Below are positions 4,882-39,132 of a DNA stretch of 39,132 nt, in pieces. Source of the stretch: a virus. The stretch lies in IMG/VR virus record IMGVR_UViG_3300046674_000493, positions 1-39,132 of that record; one strand, given 5' to 3'. The translations under genes and the position numbers were made by a program. Within the stretch, counting starts at the first letter, position 1; every line of letters begins with the position of its first letter. The notes beneath the pieces are model-generated. The model saw nothing but the letters and a program-made list of their open reading frames with translations, had not been told where the DNA came from and made no database searches.

Positions 4882-5336
4882 CCACCCGCAACAACCAGCT
4901 GCCCAAAGACGCGTCCTGGCTGGCCCGCAAGGTGCTCGAGGTCATCGACGACATCACCCACCTGCGCGCGCACACCCCGGACATGGCCGCCGCGGACGCC
5001 CTGCTCGCACCGGCGGACACCGACATCACCCGGTGGCCGCAGACCACGGCCAGCGTCTTCACCACCGTCGCCCGCTGCTACAACGTCGCCTGGAAGCCGC
5101 GGCTTCGGCTTCTCGTGGCGACGACCACCTCGGGCGGCAGCACCGGCACCGTCCGCGTTTCCATCAACGGCACCGTCTGGGCCACCGGCAGCGCGGGGGC
5201 GGCACTCGACATCACCGCGGCCCTGCCCGCGGGCGTCAGCATCGGCGCCCAGTACCAGATCACCGTGGAGGCCGTGCGCACGTCCGGCGCCGGCTCCGTC
5301 TATGCCCAGGTCCAGCTGATCCGCGCCACCGACTGA
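4878..5336 (+). CDS. Hypothetical protein (tail module)
   Basis: ATGA overlap at 4878-4881. Only the last 152 codons of track ORF 3531..5336 have normal protein composition; the upstream part is Arg/Pro-rich out-of-frame read-through of the previous genes. Confidence 0.5.
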   Translation: MTTRNNQLPKDASWLARKVLEVIDDITHLRAHTPDMAAADALLAPADTDITRWPQTTASVFTTVARCYNVAWKPRLRLLVATTTSGGSTGTVRVSINGTVWATGSAGAALDITAALPAGVSIGAQYQITVEAVRTSGAGSVYAQVQLIRATD

Positions 5337-5346
5337 GGAGCAACAC

Positions 5347-5727
5347 GTGCACAAGGTCACCACCCTGCGTGCCGACAACCCGCAGGAACTCGCCGACCGG
5401 ATGGCTCCTATCGCCGTCGACGAGTACCGCGCCGGCCGCGCCGGCCAGCTGTCCGCACCCACGTCCGGGCAGACCCAGATCCCCGCCGAACTCTGGCTGC
5501 TGGCGGTCGCCCGCGTCAGCCCGGAACCCGGCGAATGGACCATCTACGCCCTCACCAGCGACGAGGACATCCCCGGCTGGCCCTACAACACCGGCTACTA
5601 CAACGGCGGCCTGCGGACGCCCCCGCAGTTCGCGCAGGCCCTCGCCGCAGCCGGCTACCAGGTCGCCCTCCGCCACTACAGCGGATTCACGGTGACCTGC
5701 ACCGACCAGGACGTCCCGCTCACCTGA
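5347..5727 (+). CDS. Hypothetical protein
   Basis: GTG start preceded by GAGGAG (5335-5340); GC3-biased ORF between the tail and lysis genes. Confidence 0.5.
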   Translation: MHKVTTLRADNPQELADRMAPIAVDEYRAGRAGQLSAPTSGQTQIPAELWLLAVARVSPEPGEWTIYALTSDEDIPGWPYNTGYYNGGLRTPPQFAQALAAAGYQVALRHYSGFTVTCTDQDVPLT

Positions 5728-5765
5728 TCCCCGGCCCGTCCGGGCCCATCACACCTGGAGGCCTG

Positions 5766-6800
5766 ATGGCCTGGTACCCCGGCGCCGAGCGCACGGAGCT
5801 CCAACCCGAATCCGACGGCCAGCCGGCCATCGTCCCCACCCAGCTCATCCTGCACAGCATCGCCGCCCCGTGGACGCCGCGCCGGATCTACGAGTACTGG
5901 CGCGACTCCACCAACCTGGAGTCGCACTTCGGCCTCGGGTTCGACGGCAGCCTCGGCCAGTACATCGGGACGCAGACCCGCGCGGACGCGAACATGCACG
6001 CCAACCTCCGGCCGGACGGCACCGGCGCGGTATCGGTCGAGTCGGCGTCCAACCTCCAGCACACCGACCCCTGGACGGACGCGCAGGTCGAGGCGCTGAT
6101 CCGGCTCGGCGTCTGGATGCACCAGCAGCACGGGATCCCGCTGCGGATCTGCCGCACCTGGGACGACCCCGGCTACGGCGTGCACCGGATGTTCCCGCAG
6201 TGGTCGGACGGCGGCACCGCCTGCCCCGGCGACGCGCGGGTCCGGCAGTTCCACGAGCTGGTGTTCCCGGGCATCGTCGCCCGCGCAACCGGGACCGCAG
6301 CTCCCGCTCCTACCCCCGCGCCGACCCCGGCGCCCGTCCAGGAGGACGACATGACCCCCGAGGAACTCCTCACCCACCGCGTGCCGCTCGCCACCCTGCC
6401 CGGAGGCTATGTGCCCTCCGTGGAGGAGCTCCTGAACGGCGCGAAGGCCGCGGACAGCCTGATCGAGGGGCTGCGCGCCGACCTGCCGGCCCTGCTCCTC
6501 AACGCGCCGATGCCGCAGGGCGCGGCCCTGTCCAACGGCTACGTGCCCACCGTCTGGGAGGCCATCAACGGCGCCCAGACCGCAGGCTCCCAGATCGCCG
6601 CGCTCACCGCGCAGATGACCGCACAGGGCGTCGCGAACGCGGCTGCCCTCACCGCGCTGTCCACCCTCGTCGCCCAGGTCCACGGCCTGGACGTCGCCGC
6701 GGTCGGGGCAACCGTGGAGGCCGCCGTCACGCGGGCCCTCGCCACGGGCACCGTCTCCGTCGACGTCCAGGTCCATAACACCACCACCCCGAAGGGCTGA
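5766..6800 (+). CDS. Endolysin, N-acetylmuramoyl-L-alanine amidase (Amidase_2/PGRP-type) with unassigned C-terminal repeat domain
   Basis: ATG 5766 after a CTGGAGG RBS. N-domain motifs LILHSIAAPW ... GVHRMF...TACPG fit Zn-amidase His/His/Cys ligand spacing. PAPTPAPTPAP linker, then an Ala-rich C-domain with an internal repeat. Immediately upstream of the holin. Confidence 0.85.
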   Translation: MAWYPGAERTELQPESDGQPAIVPTQLILHSIAAPWTPRRIYEYWRDSTNLESHFGLGFDGSLGQYIGTQTRADANMHANLRPDGTGAVSVESASNLQHTDPWTDAQVEALIRLGVWMHQQHGIPLRICRTWDDPGYGVHRMFPQWSDGGTACPGDARVRQFHELVFPGIVARATGTAAPAPTPAPTPAPVQEDDMTPEELLTHRVPLATLPGGYVPSVEELLNGAKAADSLIEGLRADLPALLLNAPMPQGAALSNGYVPTVWEAINGAQTAGSQIAALTAQMTAQGVANAAALTALSTLVAQVHGLDVAAVGATVEAAVTRALATGTVSVDVQVHNTTTPKG

Positions 6801-6805
6801 CCACC

Positions 6806-7027
6806 ATGTCCCGCTACCTGATTGACCTCGGCGAGCGCGTCGGCGCGACCGCCGCAGAGGCAGGCCTCGCCGTCGTCATCACCGAGGTCGGCAGCCTGCC
6901 CGCGTGGTGGGTGCCGCTGCTCATCCCGATCCTGGCCGCCGCGAAGAGCCTGTGCGCGGGCTTCGTCGGCCGCAAGGACACCGCCGCGCTGCTGCCCGCG
7001 GGCACCGACCCGGCCAGTCGCCCGTGA
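6806..7027 (+). CDS. Holin
   Basis: 73 aa directly after the endolysin. Hydrophobic segments AGLAVVITEVGSL and WWVPLLIPILAAAKSLCAGFV with a charged C-terminus. N-terminal LGERVGATAAEAG resembles r1t-type holins (from memory). Confidence 0.65.
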   Translation: MSRYLIDLGERVGATAAEAGLAVVITEVGSLPAWWVPLLIPILAAAKSLCAGFVGRKDTAALLPAGTDPASRP

Positions 7028-7311
7028 GCGGGCCGGAGACCGACCGGCCAGCGGTCTCCCTGGCCCTCGAACTGGCCGAGATCCGGAGGAGTGTGGACGT
7101 CGGATTCGCCCGTACGGACGGACAGCTCGCGCTCGTCCTCCAGCGCGTCGACCAGAGCGACGGTCAGGTCGCCGAGCTCAAGGACGAGGTGGCCAGCCTC
7201 CGGGGCGAGGTCGAGGAGCTCAAGCGGCGCCGCTTCCCCATCCCCATCGTCGGCGCCCTCACCGGCCTCGCCGCCCTGGCCGTCGCCCTCATCCCCCTGC
7301 TCACCCGCTGA
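7024..7311 (+). CDS. Lysis-cassette protein, coiled coil with C-terminal membrane anchor
   Basis: GTGA overlap with the holin stop (7024-7027). Heptad-like stretch VAELKDEVASLRGEVEELKRRR followed by FPIPIVGALTGLAALAVALIPLL. Confidence 0.5.
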   Translation: MSGPETDRPAVSLALELAEIRRSVDVGFARTDGQLALVLQRVDQSDGQVAELKDEVASLRGEVEELKRRRFPIPIVGALTGLAALAVALIPLLTR

Positions 7312-7318
7312 CCCACCA

Positions 7319-7350
7319 CGCCCCCGCTCGGCTACGGCCGGGCGGGGGCG
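7319..7350. terminator. Bidirectional hairpin between convergent genes
   Basis: Perfect 9-bp stem CGCCCCCGC / GCGGGGGCG with a 14-nt loop. Lies between the + strand stop at 7311 and the - strand stop at 7372. No U-tract. Confidence 0.55.
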
Positions 7351-7371
7351 CTTCGTCGTGCCCGGGCCCCG

Positions 7372-7860
7372 TCAGTACTTCGGGCAGATGTGCGTGTGCA
7401 CGACGTCGAGGATCCGCGCCGCAGTGGCGAGCCCGAAACCCTCTGGGTGGTTCGGGCTAATGAACCGCTTATTGGCGAGGTCGAGCAGCTTCTCTCGGTC
7501 CGTGGGCCAGGCGGCGATCGAGGTGCACTCGTCGCGGCCCCGGTTGACGGCTTTGTCGTCCTTGCCGTTGACGATCTCCGGGTTGATGGCGATGAGCGCC
7601 GCGATGTACTTCGCAGTGGTCGCGGCGTCCGGCTTCGGTGGGAGGCTGCCTGCGGACTCGACTGCAGGGCTGCTCGCGGGCGAGGCCGCAGGTGTCGGAG
7701 CGGCAGGCACCGAACTGGTCGCCGGGGCTGCGGGCGCGGCGCTGCTGGCGGCCGGCACCGGAGCGGCCGCAGGCTTCGCCGGCGTGCTGCTGGCACACCC
7801 GGTCACGCCGAGCGCGATCGCTGCGGCGAGGATGATCGTGGTGGTTGTACGGATGCGCAT
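7372..7860 (-). CDS. Secreted lipoprotein (moron)
   Basis: ATG at 7860 (complement) after an AGGGGGGA RBS. Signal peptide MRIRTTTTIILAAAIALGVTGC with lipobox VTGC, a Pro/Ala/Ser linker, then a ~85-aa globular C-domain with two Cys. Only the last 162 codons of track ORF 7372..8562 are credible. Confidence 0.8.
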   Translation of the reverse strand: MRIRTTTTIILAAAIALGVTGCASSTPAKPAAAPVPAASSAAPAAPATSSVPAAPTPAASPASSPAVESAGSLPPKPDAATTAKYIAALIAINPEIVNGKDDKAVNRGRDECTSIAAWPTDREKLLDLANKRFISPNHPEGFGLATAARILDVVHTHICPKY

Positions 7861-8000
7861 GGTCCCCCCTGGGACGTGATGGTCAGGTGGGGACCGTACC
7901 GGCGTGGTGGTGGCGAGATGCCGAAGTTGCAGAGCCGTGACCGTACGGGCGATCGCCGGCAACGCCCCCGACCTGGAGCCGGGGCGCGTCGCGTCCGCGG

Positions 8001-8555
8001 TCAGCGAGCAGCGGCCACGGCGTCGGTGTACAGCTCGGTCGTGAGGTCGCTCTCCTCGATGCCGAGGCCGCCGAGGACGGCGCGCACCGCGGCCAGTGCC
8101 GGCTCGACGTCGTCCTCGGCGGCCTGGGTCTCCAGCTCGATGAACGTCTCGCCGAGCTCGGGCACCCGCACCAGCGTCGCCAGCATGGAGCGGCCCTCGG
8201 CGTGAAGCGTGTAGTTGCGGCATCGCTTCTCGAAGCGGATGACGGGGACGTAGCCGAGACCCCGCACGATCTCGTGAGCAGCCTCGGCATCCTCGACTCG
8301 AGTCTCGGCCTCGGGCTTCGAGCCGGAGGCGTCGTCGACCCGGGCGCCCTTGTACGTCAGCACGGTGCGGGTGTCGTCGGCGGCGTGGACGGTGCGGATC
8401 CGCAGCTCGCGGTCGCCGTCCCCAAGGGCACCGGCAGAGGTGTCGTAGTAGGTGTCCTGGTAGACCTCCGGACGGCCAGGGCCGTAGGCGTCTTCCAGGC
8501 GGCTCATCACGGCCTCGGGGTCCCGTACGACCGCCTTGAGCTCTGCCTCGATCAT
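8001..8555 (-). CDS. CYTH-domain protein (class IV adenylate cyclase / triphosphate tunnel metalloenzyme-like)
   Basis: ATG at 8555 (complement) 6 nt after GAGGAG. N-terminal ExExK signature (MIEAELK), then LRIR, TYKG, EAETRVED, FEKRCRNY and GETFIELE strand motifs typical of CYTH. Confidence 0.85.
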   Translation of the reverse strand: MIEAELKAVVRDPEAVMSRLEDAYGPGRPEVYQDTYYDTSAGALGDGDRELRIRTVHAADDTRTVLTYKGARVDDASGSKPEAETRVEDAEAAHEIVRGLGYVPVIRFEKRCRNYTLHAEGRSMLATLVRVPELGETFIELETQAAEDDVEPALAAVRAVLGGLGIEESDLTTELYTDAVAAAR

Positions 8556-8565
8556 GTGCCACTCC

Positions 8566-9414
8566 TCAGATGACGCGCTGTCCGTCCTCGACCATCGCAT
8601 CAAACAGCCTGCGGAAGCCCCGGTACAAGGGGCCCGCCGGGGTCGCTAGGACCTTGTACGTGGCGGACTCGTGGCCCTCCCAGTCGGCATCGAACGCCGA
8701 GACGTACAGGGTGCCGTCGAGCCTGATGATTCGCCACACCGGCAGTGTCCGGTACCGGTACGCCTCGACGTGGCCGAGGATGGCCAGCTCGCGCAGCCGC
8801 GCTTCGGCGAGGTGAATGCCGCCGGCGAGCGACTCGGGAGACTCGCCGATCTCTGCGGCCCGTCGGGCAAGGGCAGGCGAGTCCGGGTCGAGCAGCAGAA
8901 CGCGCACCGTCGGCGGGTCGTCGCCGTCCCGGTCGAGGTGAGGCCGGAGCAGGGAGTCCCGCAGAGCGAGCAGGCCCAGGCCCCGCACGGCGAGCACATC
9001 GATCTCGCGGGCTGCCCGGGCGGCGCGCTGGATCTCGGTGGCGGCGACGCTCTGCTCCGAGTAGACCCGGACCACCTCTGGGAACGCGGCGAGGTCGAAT
9101 GCCGCACCGCCGGGGCGGTTCTCACGTTGGGGTGCCAGGCCGAGCAGACGGCGGGCGTCGTCCGGCATGCTCAGGCCCTCGGCGATCCGCTCGTACACAT
9201 CGAGCCGCGAGACCTCTCGTCGCCCGTGGATGATCTCGTTGACGCGGCTCTGGGTCATCCCCGTGGCGACGCCGATCCGGGCCTGGCTGGCGCCGCTGTG
9301 GTGCTGCACCGCCCGGAACAGCGCACCGACGTCCCGGGCCTTGAGAGCCCGACGGACCTCGGAGTTCTGCCAGGTGAGGTCAGGCAGGCTGATGGGCATG
9401 ACGGCCGTTCCCAT
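8566..9414 (-). CDS. XRE-family HTH protein with ~180-aa unassigned C-terminal domain
   Basis: HTH text SGASQARIGVATGMTQSRVNEIIHGRREVS. C-domain text VRVLLLDPDSP...YRYRTLPVWRIIRLDGTLYVSAFDADWEGHESATYKV. ATG 9414 has a GAGGA RBS; an alternative GTG lies at 9426. The stop TGA overlaps the RBS of the CYTH gene. Confidence 0.8.
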   Translation of the reverse strand: MGTAVMPISLPDLTWQNSEVRRALKARDVGALFRAVQHHSGASQARIGVATGMTQSRVNEIIHGRREVSRLDVYERIAEGLSMPDDARRLLGLAPQRENRPGGAAFDLAAFPEVVRVYSEQSVAATEIQRAARAAREIDVLAVRGLGLLALRDSLLRPHLDRDGDDPPTVRVLLLDPDSPALARRAAEIGESPESLAGGIHLAEARLRELAILGHVEAYRYRTLPVWRIIRLDGTLYVSAFDADWEGHESATYKVLATPAGPLYRGFRRLFDAMVEDGQRVI

Positions 9415-9534
9415 GGTGGTCCTCACGTCGCCTGAGGGGCTATCTCAGGGTGAGATTACCGGTTGGGTATCGGATCTGACTGCCCGTTGGCCGACGCTGT
9501 GAGTGTGGACGACACACGACCGCAGGGAGTCCTG

Positions 9535-9723
9535 ATGACCGACACTGAGATGCACGGCTACGGCGTCCGCTGGGACCCGAAGGATCGATGCTGGCGGGTC
9601 CGCAACGAAGAGACCGGCGAATGGCTGCTCGGGCCCGACGGCGAGCCCCAGGCCTGGTCGGACTTCACCACCGCGGACATCGCCCACCGGCAGTTTCAGC
9701 CGCCCGCGCCGCGGACGTGGTGA
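9535..9723 (+). CDS. Hypothetical small protein
   Basis: ATG 9535 after GCAGGGAG; 62 aa, Trp-rich; divergent from the HTH gene. Confidence 0.45.
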   Translation: MTDTEMHGYGVRWDPKDRCWRVRNEETGEWLLGPDGEPQAWSDFTTADIAHRQFQPPAPRTW

Positions 9724-9932
9724 CCGAGTCAGGCGAGCAGACGACGGGGTACTGCCAGGCCTGCGGACAGTACGGGCAGGGCCGTTTCGTCGAGGTCATC
9801 AACAGCCACTCCGACGCGATAGACCGGTGTCAGGGGTGCCGCAAGTTCGCAGTGGGCCCTCCCGTTCCGCGGCGCCTCCCGCCGATCGACTCACCAGGCC
9901 TCTCGGGCCAGCAGCGGGCCAGCAGGACCTGA
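9717..9932 (+). CDS. Small zinc-ribbon-like protein
   Basis: GTG start overlapping the previous stop. Two CxxC pairs (YCQACGQ ... RCQGCRKF). Confidence 0.45.
   Translation: MVTESGEQTTGYCQACGQYGQGRFVEVINSHSDAIDRCQGCRKFAVGPPVPRRLPPIDSPGLSGQQRASRT
9904..9925. repeat. Candidate integrase arm-type site (left), GGGCCAGCAGCGGGCCAGCAGG
   Basis: Matches 10179..10200 at 20 of 22 positions in direct orientation. Internally a tandem of GGGCCAGC(A/G)G. Lies 81 bp from the attP core. Confidence 0.45.
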
Positions 9933-9955
9933 TTTCGGGTGGCTCCCGGATGCGA

Positions 9956-9995
9956 CGAAGCCCCCACCCGCCGATGCTCCGGCTGGTGGGGGCTT
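9956..9995. terminator. Bidirectional hairpin terminator next to the tRNA-derived core
   Basis: Perfect 12-bp stem GAAGCCCCCACC / GGTGGGGGCTTC with a 16-nt loop. Downstream of the + gene ending at 9932 and of the minus-strand tRNA 3' end. Confidence 0.6.
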
Positions 9996-10005
9996 CGCAG
10001 TAGGA

Positions 10006-10051
10006 GGTGGGCCGCCAGGGGCTCGAACCCTGAACCTACGGATTAAAAGTC
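10006..10051 (-). other. attP core: 3' 46 nt of a tRNA-Lys(UUU) gene (anticodon loop to acceptor end)
   Basis: The reverse complement reads GA-CTTTTAA-TCCGT-AGGTT-CAGGG-TTCGAGC-CCCTG-GCGGCCC-A-CC. That gives anticodon loop, 3' anticodon stem, variable loop, full T-arm, 3' acceptor strand and discriminator. No matching 5' half is present. It lies adjacent to the integrase gene. Confidence 0.7.
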
Positions 10052-10178
10052 TCAATCTCGCTCTGACAGCCTGTGATACTCAGTGCCAGTACATGTCTTG
10101 CAGTGCAGTTCAGAGGCCTAACAGCATGATATTCCGTGCGCTGCGGATAGCTCTCATGATGCCCTGTTACAGGGCGTT

Positions 10179-10200
10179 CGGGCCAGCGGCGGGCCAGCAG
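10179..10200. repeat. Candidate integrase arm-type site (right), GGGCCAGCGGCGGGCCAGCAGA
   Basis: Direct repeat of 9904..9925; 128 bp from the core, between the core and the int stop. Confidence 0.45.
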
Positions 10201-10249
10201 AAAAGGCCCCGCCACCTGGGGTGACGAGACCTCGATCCGCATGCTCAGT

Positions 10250-11839
10250 CTACTCCGTGACCACTTCCGGGTCGACGTACTTCGGCTGCCGACGAGCCCG
10301 CGGCACCATGCCGGCCGCGCGCTCCGCGACCTCCTTGTCCACCTCGGGCAGCAACGTGGTGTACGTGTCCGAGGCCAAGGTGATCGTGCTGTGCCGCAAC
10401 GTCTCCTTGATGGTGTGGAGGTCTCCGCCGCCGGCGTGGATGACCGTCGCGGCCTGGTGTCGTAGGTCCCGCAGGTTGATGGGCGGCAGGCCGGCCGCCT
10501 TCGAGATCCGGCGGAACGCGTCGCTCACCATCTCCGGGTGCAGCCACGTCCCGTCCTCCTGCGTGAAGACCTTCCCGGTGTCCGTCCAGGACGGCGCCTT
10601 CGTCGGGTCGCCGCCCTGGGCCAGGAACTCGGCCCGCGAGGCGAGTTGGGCGTCGCGCTCGGCCAGCTGCCGGACGCGGTGCTCACGCAGGACGGCAACG
10701 GTGACGCTGTCGAGCCCGATGGTCGCCGCGCTGCCGTCCGTCTTCGGCGCAGTCTCGATCGGGGTCCAGCCGTCCTGAACGATCTCCGTGGCGACGGTGA
10801 GCTCGGCCTGGTCGAGGTCGACGTTCAGCCAGTCCTGGCCGACGCCTTCGCCACGGCGCAGGCCGCGGAACGCGATCAGGTGGAAGAACGCGTAGAGGCG
10901 GTCGTCCTCGGCGGCGTCAAGGAACTCGCCGAGCTGGGGCAGGGTCCACACCATGACCGCGGACGGCTTCTCGCCGGTCCGCCGCCACCGCTCGACGTGC
11001 TGGGCGGTCCACAGCATCGCCTTGGGGCGCCGGCCGGAGTCCATCTCCAGGTGCTCGGCCGGGTTGAAGGTGATGAGCTGGCGGGCGATGGCGGAGTTGA
11101 GCGCGGCCCGGATGGTGGAGCGGATCCGCTGGCGGGTGGCCGGCCCAGTGATACGCCGGAACGGCTTCATCTCGGCGAGCACGGCGCGTTCGGCCGCGAT
11201 CCGCTGCTTCGTCTCGGCGCTGGGTACTCCGGGCTTGCCGACGCGGGTGCGGGCGACCTGCTCGCGGCGGGCCTGGTTCTCCGCGGCGATGACCTCGTTG
11301 GCGTCGGCGATGGCGTCGAACATCTCGACGAGGTGGCCGACGTTGAGGCGGTCCAGGCGCAGATGCCCGATGCGGGGCTTGAGGTGTACGCGAGTGTGGG
11401 ACTCGTAGCCGTTGGTGGTCGTCTTGCGGGTCTTCTTGGAGGCGAGCCAGGTGTCGAGCCAGTCCCCGACGGTCATCTTGCCTTCGAGGGGGATGCCGAC
11501 TCCGAGGCGGCGTTGGACCTCGATGATGTCGGGGATCGGGGAGCGGTTCTTGGCGACGTCGACGAGCAGGGCGGCGACTCGTTGTTCGGCGTCGTCGTCG
11601 CCCTTGGCGAGGTCGAGAATCGCGCGGACCTTGTCGAGTTCGGCCTGGGCCTTGGCGACGGTGTCGAAGCCGGTGCGGCGGAAGGTACGCCGCTTGCCGT
11701 CGCGGTCGGCGGGGAGTTCTTGGCGGAACGCCGGCGCTCCGTGATTCTTCCTAGCCAAGGTGGGACAGGCCGAGCCGAGGAGCTTACCGTCCTCGCCCCG
11801 GCATTCGCACCGCTTGTAGACCCCGCCACCGCGCCTCAT
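10250..11839 (-). CDS. int: Tyrosine integrase
   Basis: 529 aa. Catalytic-domain motifs FRGLRRGE, LRDLRHQAAT and LRHSTITLASDTYTT (R..HxxR..Y). Actinophage-type N-terminus MRRGGGVYKRCECRG. Adjacent to the tRNA-derived att core. Confidence 0.95.
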   Translation of the reverse strand: MRRGGGVYKRCECRGEDGKLLGSACPTLARKNHGAPAFRQELPADRDGKRRTFRRTGFDTVAKAQAELDKVRAILDLAKGDDDAEQRVAALLVDVAKNRSPIPDIIEVQRRLGVGIPLEGKMTVGDWLDTWLASKKTRKTTTNGYESHTRVHLKPRIGHLRLDRLNVGHLVEMFDAIADANEVIAAENQARREQVARTRVGKPGVPSAETKQRIAAERAVLAEMKPFRRITGPATRQRIRSTIRAALNSAIARQLITFNPAEHLEMDSGRRPKAMLWTAQHVERWRRTGEKPSAVMVWTLPQLGEFLDAAEDDRLYAFFHLIAFRGLRRGEGVGQDWLNVDLDQAELTVATEIVQDGWTPIETAPKTDGSAATIGLDSVTVAVLREHRVRQLAERDAQLASRAEFLAQGGDPTKAPSWTDTGKVFTQEDGTWLHPEMVSDAFRRISKAAGLPPINLRDLRHQAATVIHAGGGDLHTIKETLRHSTITLASDTYTTLLPEVDKEVAERAAGMVPRARRQPKYVDPEVVTE

Positions 11840-11858
11840 AGGGAAACCTCCAATTTTC

Positions 11859-12608
11859 TCAATCTCTTGGAATGCCGGGGACGAAATTCATACGCGGCAG
11901 ATCCGGCCTCTCGGCAACCATTTCGATGTCGATGGCACCACCGGGAGGATCAGCATCCGGAAAGGGGATCAGCGGCAGATATGACGCCTCGGGATCATCC
12001 GAGTGATCTGTAGCTAGGAACTCGATCCACCACCTGACTTGCTCCTCCCCTTGGTCAAGCAACCTCTGCTCTTCTCGGGCCGACTGCTCATACGCCCTCT
12101 TCAGGTCGTCTGTAGGCGCGTCGCGTGCCAGGTGCCGGAGCTGCAAAATCCTGTGTTGCTTCTTGAGAAGCTGCCGTTTTCCTTCGGCAACTTTTCGCAC
12201 CATGAAGATCTCACTCCTCATGAGATCGCTCTGATTTGGACGAAGGTCACGCTTCTGCGCCGGTGCCTCACCCGAGAACCAGGCCACTGCACTCAGAGGC
12301 GCCCCATTGACGCCCGGGACAAATTCTACCTCCTCTACCAATCCAACTGGATAGAAGAGGGCGACCGGCGGAACCCCGAGAGCCGACCCAAGGACAATTA
12401 CTTCCGCTAGAGATACGTTCAGCCTTCGACCGTTTTCAAAGTTTGCCAGGACAGAACGGGCAATTGGAAACCCGATCTCACTGCACTTATCGGCGAGCTG
12501 TTGGGCGCTCATGCCCTGCCGCTGGCGGTGCCTCCGCACCTCTCCGGCCACGACTCCGGCGAGGTGCGCCGACCAATCTAGATGCCGTTCCGTGTCATTT
12601 GATGTCAT
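11859..12608 (-). CDS. XRE-family HTH repressor (cI-like), atypical low-GC codon usage
   Basis: ATG at 12608 (complement). HTH text GMSAQQLADKCSEIGFPIARSVLANFENGRR. 19 nt upstream of int on the same strand and divergent from the xis-like gene. Many A/T-ending codons, unlike the rest of the genome. Confidence 0.75.
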   Translation of the reverse strand: MTSNDTERHLDWSAHLAGVVAGEVRRHRQRQGMSAQQLADKCSEIGFPIARSVLANFENGRRLNVSLAEVIVLGSALGVPPVALFYPVGLVEEVEFVPGVNGAPLSAVAWFSGEAPAQKRDLRPNQSDLMRSEIFMVRKVAEGKRQLLKKQHRILQLRHLARDAPTDDLKRAYEQSAREEQRLLDQGEEQVRWWIEFLATDHSDDPEASYLPLIPFPDADPPGGAIDIEMVAERPDLPRMNFVPGIPRD

Positions 12609-12697: not shown

Positions 12698-13000
12698 GTG
12701 ACAGCACAACGCGAGCGCCCTGCCCGATCGATGAGCAGAGCCGAGCTGCTCTCTTTGCCTGCAAGCGTCGACATCGTGACAGCCGGGAGGGCCTTCGGGC
12801 TCGGCAGGACGACCGCCTACCAGCTCGCTCGTACGGGCAGCTTTCCCTGCAAGGTTCTGCGCACGGGAAAGGCCTACCGGGCCATCACCGCCGACTTGCT
12901 CCGGGTCCTCCTGATCAGCCCGGATAACGAGAACGCCGCCGCGGGTGCAACCGCGGCGGCGTCTGACGAGACACCCAGCTCCACCAGCGCTGACCAGTAG
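12698..13000 (+). CDS. xis: Excisionase-like / MerR-type HTH DNA-binding protein
   Basis: Text LLSLPASVDIVTAGRAFGLGRTTAYQLARTGSFPCKVLRTGKAYR is typical of excisionase-family HTH. Divergent from repressor-int. An alternative ATG lies at 12731. Confidence 0.6.
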   Translation: MTAQRERPARSMSRAELLSLPASVDIVTAGRAFGLGRTTAYQLARTGSFPCKVLRTGKAYRAITADLLRVLLISPDNENAAAGATAAASDETPSSTSADQ

Positions 13001-37546: not shown

Positions 37547-39132
37547 CCGCACGGTGAACGTCCGCCTGGGCGTCGACAACAGCACTGCCCGGCGCTCCGT
37601 GACGCAGTCCGAGGCCGACTTCCGGCGCCTGGGGGTCGCCGCGGCGGCGGCCGGCGCCGAGCAGCAGACCGCCTTCCAGCGGGCGGCCACCGTCTCGCAG
37701 AGCGCGTTCGAGCGGACGGCGGCCGTCGCGCAGGCCACCGGCCGGGCGACCCAGGAATCCGTTCTCGCGACGTCGACCAGCCTCGGGCGGCTCGCCGTGT
37801 CCGCCGAGGAGGTTCCGACGACGTTCGCGTCCGCTGCCTCGATCTCGTCCCGGGCGATGGGTGAGCTGGCGACGTCCACGTCGGCGGCGGCAGCCTCGGT
37901 CGTCGCGTCCGAGACCCGCATGTCCGAGGCCACGGTCGCCGCGTCCACGGGCATCGAGCGGTCGCTGGCGATGCGGCTGGCGGCCGGTGAGGCCGTGATG
38001 GCCCAGCAGGGCGCGTTGGCGGCCGCGACGTCGGCGTCGTCCGCCACGCAGGCGTCCGCATTCTCCCGAGCGGCCACCGCCGTGGACCGCGCGGACACCG
38101 CGTTCAGCGGGGCCCGTACCACCGGGCTCGCCATGCTCGCGATGTTCGCCGCGGCCTCGGTCACCGCCGCCAAGTTCGAGAAGAGCATGTCCGGGGTCGC
38201 GGCGGTCGCCGACACGGACGCGGCGTCGCTGGCCCAGCTGCGTGACGCGGCGCTGGACGCCGGCCGCGCCACCTCCTACAGCGCGTCGCAGGCCGCGGAT
38301 GCCGAGGGCGAGCTGGCGCGCGCGGGTGTCAGCGTCGCGGACATCCTCGGCGGCGCCCTGCGCGGCGCCCTGTCCCTGGCTGCGGCCGGGCAGCTCGGCC
38401 TGTCCGAGGCCGCCACGATCTCCGCGCAGTCCATGAACACGTTCGGCCTGCGCGGCAAGGACGTTGCGCACATCGCGGACGTCCTCGCCGCCGGCGCCAA
38501 CAAGTCGGCGGCCGACGTGCACGGGCTGGGCGAGTCCCTGCGGATGGGCGGCCTGCTCGCCCACCAGACCGGCCTGTCCCTCGAGGACACCGTCGGCACG
38601 TTGTCGGCCTTCGCCGACCACGCGCTGATCGGTTCCGACGCCGGCACCAGCCTCAAGACGATGCTTCAGCGGCTCACGCCGCAGTCGGACGAGGCGCGCG
38701 GCATGATGGACAAGTTGGGCTTCAGCGCGTACGACGCGCAGGGCCAGTTCGTCGGCCTGGACAAACTCGCCGGGAACATGAAGCGGAGCTTCTCGGACCT
38801 GACGCCCGAGGCCCGCAACGCGGCGTTCGGCGTCATCTTCGGGTCCGACGCGGTCCGTGCGGCAACCATCCTGTACGAGCAGGGCTCCGAGGGCATCAGC
38901 CGCTACCGGGGCGAGGTCGACGACGCCGGCGCCGCTTCCCGCATGGCCGCCGTCCAGCTCGACAACCTGTCCGGCGACCTGGAGGCCCTCGGCGGCGCCC
39001 TGGAGGTCGCCCTGATCCAGGGCGGCACCGAGGCCAACAAAGTCCTGCGGACCATGGTCGAGTGGGTGACCAAGCTGGTCAACGCCTACACCGACCTGCC
39101 GAGTTGGGCCCAGACCTCGGCCGTGGCGATCC
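37539..39132 (+). CDS. Tail tape measure protein, N-terminal part (continues at base 128 / overlaps bases 1..127)
   Basis: GTG after GGAAGGAGGA. TP901-type TMP core text (FEKSMSGVAAVADT, LAAGANKSAADVHGLGESL, GTSLKTMLQRL, FGVIFGSDAVRAA). No stop before the window end. The joined protein is about 1107 aa. Confidence 0.9.
   Translation, partial: MTDRTVNVRLGVDNSTARRSVTQSEADFRRLGVAAAAAGAEQQTAFQRAATVSQSAFERTAAVAQATGRATQESVLATSTSLGRLAVSAEEVPTTFASAASISSRAMGELATSTSAAAASVVASETRMSEATVAASTGIERSLAMRLAAGEAVMAQQGALAAATSASSATQASAFSRAATAVDRADTAFSGARTTGLAMLAMFAAASVTAAKFEKSMSGVAAVADTDAASLAQLRDAALDAGRATSYSASQAADAEGELARAGVSVADILGGALRGALSLAAAGQLGLSEAATISAQSMNTFGLRGKDVAHIADVLAAGANKSAADVHGLGESLRMGGLLAHQTGLSLEDTVGTLSAFADHALIGSDAGTSLKTMLQRLTPQSDEARGMMDKLGFSAYDAQGQFVGLDKLAGNMKRSFSDLTPEARNAAFGVIFGSDAVRAATILYEQGSEGISRYRGEVDDAGAASRMAAVQLDNLSGDLEALGGALEVALIQGGTEANKVLRTMVEWVTKLVNAYTDLPSWAQTSAVAI
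39006..39132. repeat. Terminal overlap, identical to 1..127
   Basis: Base-by-base identity. Confidence 0.97.

Follow-up and report, generated by a model that had tools for sequence, protein, structure and literature searches.

A recurrent gene pair in a complete phage genome

The virus record IMGVR_UViG_3300046674_000493 of IMG/VR, analysed here over its full length of 39,132 bases (71% G+C; hereafter the window), carries two adjacent minus-strand genes, the first for a protein with a helix-turn-helix (HTH) of the XRE type and a further C-terminal domain (8566..9414), the proposed sensor/regulator, and the second, directly downstream, for an enzyme of the CYTH or triphosphate-tunnel metalloenzyme (TTM) class (8001..8555; 184 amino acids), a predicted triphosphohydrolase. 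A first-pass annotation, made from the sequence alone, had placed the pair at the end of an integrated prophage and proposed it as a candidate nucleotide-based defence or host-rewiring system. Because the first 127 bases of the window are identical to the last (1–127 = 39006–39132), the record represents an entire phage genome of 39,005 bp, either circularly permuted or terminally redundant, rather than a prophage inside host DNA, and the “prophage end” of that annotation describes a predicted integrated state. Both genes show actinomycete coding bias, with a G+C content at third codon positions (GC3) of 0.88–0.89. The upstream gene likely starts at ATG 9414 (282 amino acids), four codons inside the open reading frame (ORF) that opens at the alternative GTG 9426 (286 amino acids); the Joint Genome Institute (JGI) call of 282 amino acids, at 100% identity, and nearly all homologues use this start.

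The HTH protein has hundreds of relatives, the best 120 of which are 67–84% identical to it and belong to Kitasatospora and Streptomyces. We compared 90 loci, consisting of five IMG/VR viral contigs, phage mu1/6, four contig look-up loci and 80 species-representative genomes chosen from 249 matches among 185,579 species genomes. A CYTH gene lies directly downstream on the same strand, 15–30 nt on, in 89 of these 90, the sole exception being a 1.5-kb contig that ends there. Reciprocally, a search with the CYTH protein found the partner upstream in six of six viral contigs. A metagenome scan, seeded with membrane-anchored variants of the upstream protein (see below), returned 69 loci, in which CYTH follows in 58 of 58 credible, long-enough relatives spanning 31–73% G+C; three negatives were marginal matches of 35–56 residues. 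The pair recurs, in all, at about 150 other places. Since the adjacency holds in 89 of 90 loci and in all 58 metagenome relatives, chance is excluded, and the conserved HTH–CYTH neighbourhood for which the first-pass annotation had proposed a search is a real, strictly co-occurring, coupled unit. No third gene is conserved across the 90 loci, the largest neighbour cluster being present in eight.

Two disrupted copies were also observed, in L051 (1078–2191; CYTH residues 98–184 left) and L063 (6001–7126; residues 1–88), in which CYTH is truncated and the HTH gene is of full length. The converse case, an intact CYTH gene with the HTH gene lost, was not seen in a search whose design could hardly reveal one.

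Fold and conserved residues of the upstream protein

The N-terminal XRE-type HTH read in the first-pass annotation is borne out by Pfam HTH_31, which matches residues 33–95 (286-amino-acid numbering; 9142..9330, minus strand) at E 1.3e-8 and 35 bits, against a cut-off of 27, and by Foldseek this part resembles C.AhdI, C.BclI and the 434 repressor. The C-terminal domain, which the same annotation could not assign, proved equally resistant to sequence-based assignment, its ~175 residues having no Pfam, NCBIfam or PADLOC match. Its family is small, comprising 232 representative clusters in an exhaustive search of 1.84 billion proteins with the 187 C-terminal residues.

An AlphaFold2 model of the HTH protein, built from an alignment of 42 diverse members, reached a mean predicted local distance difference test score (pLDDT) of 92. 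When the C-terminal domain of this model (residues ~112–286; 8569..9093, minus strand) was compared with the PDB by Foldseek, as had been proposed, the result was a phospholipase D (PLD) fold, with matches to vaccinia F13 (1.3e-5), PLD 7e0m (1.3e-4), NucT, Zucchini and PLD3 at a probability of about 1.0; for the full-length model, the best match overall was TrmBL2 (E 2.6e-6). The modelled structure therefore assigns the domain a predicted PLD fold. The relation to solved PLD proteins stands at fold level only, single-sequence and profile searches of the PDB having returned nothing above noise, and a fold search of BFVD gave no match below E 1e-3.

The catalytic HxK(x)4D motif of the PLD fold is absent from the domain: no His or Lys is invariant across three alignments, and Pfam PLDc does not match. 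The stretch with HKD spacing reads V230-W231-R232-x4-D237, in which W231, R232 and D237 are nearly invariant, and the domain has further conserved positions, the Arg, Glu and Trp residues including R148, R161, R175, R189, E192 and E195. As modelled, the domain would be a catalytically dead PLD, for which we propose a role as a ligand- or partner-binding sensor. Because several of its relatives match the Pfam family DUF5919 (PF19319), one of them above the cut-off (P0196, 25.8 bits against 23.5) and others below it (P0177, P0216 and P0204), the domain also appears to be a remote relative of this uncharacterised family, of which the papers searched make no mention. The window protein has no match to DUF5919 at E <= 0.01.

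The downstream enzyme as a predicted triphosphohydrolase

Every feature of the CYTH signature that had been listed for the downstream protein (MIEAELK, ELRIR, TYKG and FIELE) is present, within a full-length CYTH domain that Pfam (PF01928) matches over residues 1–176 of 184 (E 1.1e-17; 64.8 bits against a cut-off of 23.2). The ExExK motif occupies residues 3–7 within MIEAELK, and its E3, E5 and K7 do not vary among six diverse partners of the upstream protein and reach at least 98% conservation in 96. R52 and R54 of ELRIR are likewise invariant, as are both Glu residues of FIELE (FLEVE or FVELE in partners). These ExExK, RxR and ExE residues are unchanged in partners down to 37% identity, including one from an organism of 32% G+C. 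Homology to 2EEN and 7NS8 suggests that the phage protein forms an eight-stranded barrel.

The first-pass annotation had described this enzyme as adenylate cyclase-like and had considered a cyclic-nucleotide defence or a perturbation of host cyclic AMP (cAMP), and the NCBIfam model TIGR00318 “cyaB” does match it (65.2 bits against a cut-off of 57.95). This reading fails when held against the published discriminators (Vogt et al. 2021, PMC8233210) of true class IV cyclases, which have HF placed four residues ahead of ExExK (HFxxxxExExK), a small residue where xxRxR would have its first Arg, and, on strand beta-8, ExA instead of ExE. The HF motif is absent, with only M-I preceding ExExK (the upstream in-frame EEWH is no substitute, and partners start alike), and the RxR and ExA changes are both absent too, ELRIR and FIELE being retained. 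The closest solved structures likewise lie outside the cyclases. Single-sequence PDB matches were PH1819 (5e-14) and SaTTM (3e-7), and a profile of the partners reached 2.7e-25 with PH1819, of the archaeal triphosphatase group, and 2e-14 with SaTTM, compared with 8e-3 for Yersinia YpCyaB, the true class IV cyclases being its weakest PDB matches. SaTTM is reported to hydrolyse triphosphates without forming any cyclic nucleotide.

Because the HF motif is missing, both RxR arginines are kept and ExE stands in place of ExA, we predict that the CYTH protein is a triphosphate-tunnel hydrolase and not a class IV adenylate cyclase; cAMP synthesis by it appears unlikely. The TIGR00318 name “class IV adenylate cyclase” is likely an over-annotation for this clade, since the motifs fail the cyclase rules and the profile fits PH1819 and SaTTM far better than YpCyaB, and the assignment proposed here corrects a widespread database label.

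Gene junction and putative operator

At the junction of the two genes (8556..8568, minus strand), the TGA stop codon of the upstream gene (8566–8568) lies inside the GAGGAG ribosome-binding site of the CYTH gene and is followed by GGAGTGGCAC and the ATG at 8555, with a gap of 10 nt. This arrangement is as the first-pass annotation had described it, and, together with intergenic distances of −4 to 22 nt among 96 pairs, it indicates that the CYTH gene is translationally coupled to the HTH gene.

Upstream of the pair lies a putative promoter/operator element (9442..9473, minus strand; CGATACCCAACC-GGTAATCTCACCCTGAGAT), 28–59 nt before the start codon. An element of ~32 nt with the consensus tCGATAcCCnnnCGGTAATCTCACnGTGAGAT occurs in 90 of 90 HTH-type loci, 35–64 nt before the start and within flanks that are otherwise unalignable. 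It holds a perfect palindrome, ATCTCAC-n-GTGAGAT (= ATCTCA-N3-TGAGAT), and the TAATCT within it is a possible −10 hexamer. The operator core is found once in 39 kb, where chance would give 0.01 matches. Because arm mismatches in relatives are not compensatory and an Rfam scan of the whole window returned no family, the element fits a protein operator, a putative DNA site, rather than an RNA, and the HTH protein would be expected to repress its own operon through it. At the other end of the pair, a GC-rich hairpin past the CYTH stop codon folds no better than shuffled sequence (z = −0.86).

Variant architectures of the pair

The N-terminal part varies among relatives of the upstream protein: in some, two or three membrane helices take the place of the HTH, and in others this region is of another kind. 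CYTH lies directly downstream in every such variant on a long-enough contig (P0165, P0150, P0179 and P0158 with membrane helices; P0156 with another N-terminus), and the two genes of these variant pairs often overlap by 4 nt. In four representative clusters, the PLD-like domain is instead fused to an HD phosphohydrolase, and these fusion genes stand alone, with no CYTH neighbour, in both contigs long enough to judge. The HD-fusion proteins observed are P0204, P0216, P0218, P0234, P0271 and P0272; one fusion gene (L170, 2004–3398) adjoins genes for a GIY-YIG protein, an ImuB/DnaE2-like polymerase and LexA.

Other loci gain further enzymes. In L095 (3016–6625), His_Phos_1 and HIT genes follow CYTH and are themselves followed by GmrSD_N and an N6_N4 methylase; in L121 (3506–5467), a NUDIX gene follows CYTH; and in the P0179 contig, His_Phos_1 precedes the pair, with a large serine recombinase alongside. 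Because the HTH swaps for membrane helices, and CYTH swaps for a fused HD or gains NUDIX, HIT or phosphatase genes, the invariant core of these loci is the putative dead-PLD sensor together with a nucleotide/phosphate hydrolase. The PLD-like domain and a phosphohydrolase are thus the constant elements, fused in some relatives, and by the Rosetta-stone argument a physical association between them is probable.

The contig L121, from a soil metagenome, also has genes for XRE-HTH + DUF5753 proteins on either side of the pair (647–1561 and 6428–7282), which belong to the common actinomycete “Scr1-like” regulator family.

Mobile carriage and retention

Carriers of the pair include the window phage, mu1/6, IMG/VR contigs, prophages, serine-recombinase elements and plasmids, three of the last from Streptomyces, and recognisable phage genes flank ~20 of 80 loci by a count of low sensitivity. 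S. scabiei ATCC 49173 (L069) is one natural carrier. The chromosome of Streptomyces sp. NBC_01622 holds two copies (L032 and L075); the one at 0.19 Mb lies within an element that also encodes a serine recombinase, a D5_N primase and an NlpC/P60 protein, and the other is at 7.03 Mb.

Three genomes carry, a few kb downstream of tRNA-Lys, a repeat of its 3′ portion, and the islands bounded in this way hold an intact pair and little else: 2.9 kb in L047 (2923–5882), 4.5 kb in L016 (2281–6777) and 4.4 kb in L027 (5164–9590), the last with integrase fragments at 8738–9408. Such mini-islands are prophage remnants that retained the pair. With the remnants counted in, pairwise ratios of nonsynonymous to synonymous substitution rates (dN/dS) come to ~0.24 (HTH gene) and ~0.23 (CYTH gene). 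Because an intact pair is thus under purifying selection in the remnants, the host retains it after phage decay, an observation that either a benefit or an addictive property would fit.

Phage genome layout and attachment site

The gene map of the window, drawn from GC3 coding bias and domain searches, has on its plus strand tail genes, an Amidase_2 endolysin (5535–6800) and a candidate small holin. Co-oriented with the CYTH gene and downstream of it is a lipoprotein gene (7372–7860, minus strand; signal/lipobox ...LGVTGCASS; phrog_12816 match at E 2e-26 and weak DUF732 similarity). Because it adjoins the pair in only two of 90 loci, it is a separate accessory gene outside the module, possibly a second lysogen-expressed function. 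On the other side of the pair, divergent from the HTH gene and heading to the phage attachment site (attP), are two small plus-strand ORFs (9535–9723 and 9717–9932) that overlap at GTGGTGA, the second with a zinc-ribbon-like CxxC...CxxC (YCQACGQ...CQGCRKF); neither has a Pfam match or relatives in the other loci. A tyrosine integrase (10250–11839, minus strand) is adjoined by a second XRE-HTH protein (HTH_31/HTH_3; 11862–12608, minus strand), which faces an Xis-like HTH_17 gene (12698–12997, plus strand), and these last two probably form the phage immunity repressor and excisionase/Cro switch. Early genes and then terminase, portal and capsid genes complete the plus strand. A megablast search with positions 5000–12500 against 50,697 phage records gave no match at the DNA level.

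The attP core (10006–10051, minus strand) is identical in 46 of 46 positions to the 3′ end of tRNA-Lys(UUU) in the Kitasatospora loci L027 and L016, and is context rather than part of the module. It sits between the gene pair and the integrase, so the placement of the two minus-strand genes between lysis genes and attP, as first annotated, agrees with both the gene map and the tRNA match. On integration, the pair would lie ~0.6 kb from the att junction. The integrated state is seen in L014, L016, L027 and L047, where tRNA-Lys lies ~0.8–1.5 kb upstream of the HTH gene, and tRNA-Lys is found upstream of the pair in L055 too. Because the attP core is identical to a Kitasatospora tRNA-Lys end, the host is most likely Kitasatospora or a close relative. 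Two 31-nt direct repeats, CAGG..TCGGGCCAGC[A/G]GCGGGCCAGCAG, flank attP (9895–9925 and 10170–10200; 87% identical) and may be integrase arm sites. An inverted repeat beside attP (9956–9997; 18-nt arms, 94% complementary) would follow the reconstituted tRNA after integration.

Possible functions of the pair

We favour, tentatively and with a confidence that stays somewhat below even, a conflict function that benefits the lysogen, in which a sensor is combined with a triphosphohydrolase and whose most likely form is exclusion or abortive infection. The two genes would form a horizontally mobile, self-regulated module, driven by a promoter of its own, within the lysogeny-side part of a temperate Kitasatospora/Streptomyces phage. 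Its XRE HTH, of the dimer type, would bind the palindrome over its own promoter and hold the operon low, and the dead-PLD domain would partner the enzyme, by direct contact or through a phosphate-rich ligand, gating its amount or activity. CYTH would hydrolyse a triphosphate-bearing substrate and make no cAMP, the candidates being nucleoside or deoxynucleoside triphosphates (NTP/dNTP), inorganic triphosphate, 5′-triphosphate RNA ends and a polyphosphorylated alarmone. Once the sensor is triggered, hydrolysis of triphosphates or nucleotides would lead to exclusion of the superinfecting phage or to an aborted infection. Operator binding, the coupling of sensor to enzyme, the substrate, expression in lysogens and the defence role are the steps that we infer. 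We favour a conflict role because the pair lies on the attP side and on the lysogeny strand, is carried by mobile elements and persists in remnants, and because its outputs swap between HTH and membrane helices and fusions of CARF/SAVED with CYTH offer a precedent.

Several points weigh against this proposal. An HTH output would be unusual for an abortive-infection effector. Around the pair in the 80 Streptomycetaceae genomes, the flanking genes (142 ORFs from 52 genome loci, with 146 Pfam families and three integrases) are unremarkable and of mixed kinds, and a defence-island signal is absent from them, the few weak defence matches being scattered (ThsA, GajA and PDC-S35 once each, and mad/AriA unspecifically), although the distant variant L095 does adjoin GmrSD_N and a DNA methylase. 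Neither protein matches a model of PADLOC-DB v2.0.0 at E <= 0.1, mu1/6 is the sole carrier of the pair among the 50,697 phage records, and a scan of 7200–10300 found no consensus promoter or terminator. As to the sensor itself, the HKD position was set by motif spacing and predicted strands, not by residue-level structural alignment, and a semi-conserved His in an EGHxS motif leaves some activity of the PLD-like domain possible.

A broader form of the proposal, which we consider possible but on balance doubtful, is that the pair is the founding example of a scattered family of conflict systems (31–73% GC), in which a dead-PLD sensor, anchored through an HTH on DNA or through two or three helices in the membrane, controls CYTH or a fused HD hydrolase, so that infection would trigger destruction of a triphosphorylated molecule, be it a nucleotide, the 5′ end of an RNA or an alarmone, by a defence chemistry so far undemonstrated for CYTH enzymes. 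Each part is of known fold or superfamily; their combination is absent from PADLOC and from the papers found, and fits the definition of no family that we considered. To our knowledge, CYTH/TTM enzymes have been known for two decades with almost no bacterial physiology attached to them. If the module worked as we propose, it would give these enzymes a concrete biological role, would provide the first function for a DUF5919-like dead-PLD domain, and would add a new sensor–effector pairing to the phage-carried conflict systems of antibiotic-producing actinomycetes. The system is also tractable, having two genes, a sharply defined putative operator, clear catalytic residues, a cultured carrier (mu1/6) and natural minimal islands.

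Among the alternatives, an addiction module resembling a toxin–antitoxin system is unlikely, yet accounts for much of the layout. CYTH would here act as the toxin, by draining the cell of ATP/NTP or of some other essential triphosphate, and the HTH/PLD-like protein as antitoxin and autorepressor, with stabilisation of the prophage or island, rather than phage exclusion, as the main effect. The order of the genes is canonical, with the HTH gene first, the enzyme second, coupling or overlap between them and a palindrome in the promoter; the distribution is sporadic and mobile; the pair persists in heavily decayed att-bounded remnants; and the disrupted copies (L051 and L063) lose CYTH only, which is the direction of loss that toxin–antitoxin pairs tolerate. 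The partner protein is, however, large (282 amino acids) and structured, and membrane-anchored variants without the HTH retain the pairing. Fusion of HD in cis to the supposed antitoxin domain is hard to square with toxin release, and the extra NUDIX, HIT and phosphatase genes are ill-suited to a two-part module. Furthermore, neither protein matches a known toxin or antitoxin family in Pfam, NCBIfam or PADLOC, and characterised TTMs are not known as toxic.

We also judge it improbable that the pair is a regulator of lysogenic conversion or housekeeping, whose PLD-like domain would sense a polyphosphorylated compound, such as inorganic triphosphate or polyphosphate (PPPi/polyP), (p)ppGpp, Ap4A or p4A, and induce the hydrolase that removes it, thereby tuning host stress responses or development instead of combating phages. 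A repressor that senses a substrate and stands beside the degrading enzyme would suit an autoregulated operator, and the architecture parallels the TrmB-type combination of an HTH with a non-catalytic PLD-like effector domain. CYTH has an established tie to polyphosphate/triphosphate metabolism, nucleotide polyphosphates are substrates of all the accessory enzymes (NUDIX, HIT, HD and histidine phosphatase), and many chromosomal copies lie amid ordinary metabolic genes. Set against this are the sporadic occurrence of the pair, with 249 relatives among the 185,579 species genomes and in only part of the Streptomycetaceae, its carriage by phages, plasmids and integrative elements, which argues against housekeeping, and the membrane-anchored variants, which cannot regulate transcription.

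A device internal to the phage, with the HTH protein as a second repressor or anti-repressor for lysogeny or induction and CYTH as a metabolic accessory, is very unlikely, even though the HTH gene belongs to the lysogeny region, shares its strand with the integrase and the putative repressor, and encodes an HTH that resembles phage repressors and controller proteins. The genome has a single copy of the operator, located at the promoter of the gene itself, and beside the integrase the phage has another repressor, paired with an Xis/Cro-like gene; for these reasons, a role of the HTH protein as phage immunity repressor was rejected, and one as master switch of the phage is unlikely. Moreover, the pair is found on non-phage elements, and purifying selection maintains it in remnants from which the phage that it might regulate has gone. 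Least credible of all is a CyaB-type cyclase whose cAMP or other cyclic nucleotide is sensed by the HTH protein, in a Pycsar/CBASS-like defence or a rewiring of cAMP-dependent development: TIGR00318 scores above its cut-off, the mu1/6 protein is annotated accordingly, and a constant nucleotide enzyme beside a sensor with variable outputs (HTH or transmembrane) resembles signal-based immunity, but all three published class IV determinants are absent, true class IV structures are the weakest matches, the nearest characterised relative, SaTTM, is reported to make no cyclic nucleotide, and the HD hydrolase fusions that replace CYTH fit a hydrolase partner rather than a signal synthase.

Comparison with known systems

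The first-pass annotation had named no described system with this architecture, and none emerged here, either as a PADLOC model or as a published description of the pair in literature searches that combined CYTH/TTM with phage defence or toxin–antitoxin systems, class IV cyclases with prophages, and TrmB with PLD. The closest likeness is the orthologous pair gp2/gp1 of mu1/6 (NC_007967), a cultured temperate Streptomyces phage of similar genome size, whose products are 73% and 75% identical to those of the window. Order, spacing and genomic position agree, the mu1/6 pair likewise lying between the endolysin/holin genes and the integrase, whereas the rest of the mu1/6 genome is not similar at the DNA level. 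The two mu1/6 products are annotated as “helix-turn-helix domain-containing protein” (gp2) and “class IV adenylate cyclase” (gp1), and we found no functional study of either.

Among solved structures, the best sequence matches of the phage CYTH are SaTTM (Saci_0718, 7NS8) and PH1819 (2EEN), of cluster 3 in Vogt et al. 2021. The phage enzyme shares with them a single domain of ~180–200 amino acids, ExExK, RxR and ExE, and the lack of HF; they differ in being encoded by archaeal genes that stand alone, for which neither a PLD-like partner nor a phage context has been reported.

For the upstream protein, TrmBL2 (5BPD) and the TrmB family similarly join an N-terminal HTH to a PLD-like domain without catalytic residues and are thus a precedent for a dead PLD effector module. 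TrmB itself has a role in sugar sensing. The HTH of that family is a winged helix rather than XRE, its members are archaeal chromatin or sugar regulators with no CYTH pairing, and the likeness is one of fold, sequence similarity being undetectable and the window protein matching neither TrmB nor Regulator_TrmB of Pfam.

With type II toxin–antitoxin modules that have XRE antitoxins (Xre-RES, HigBA), the pair shares the XRE-first order, the coupling, the palindromic operator and the mobile carriage; its coupled genes, with the DNA-binding protein first and a palindrome in the promoter, have the type II layout, and autoregulation is predicted. It has no homology to these modules, and here the upstream protein is large, has a predicted PLD fold and occurs in membrane-helix and HD-fused variants.

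Nucleotide-depletion defences employ a dGTPase or a dCTP deaminase. What they share with the pair is a concept, a triphosphate phosphohydrolase under the control of a sensor, which here is predicted. SAMHD1-like HD dNTPases are echoed by the interchange of HD and CYTH, with no protein homology to the depletion systems. In fusions listed among CRISPR-linked effectors, CYTH is joined to CARF/SAVED sensors; in the pair described here, the proposed sensor would be a dead PLD fold instead of CARF/SAVED.

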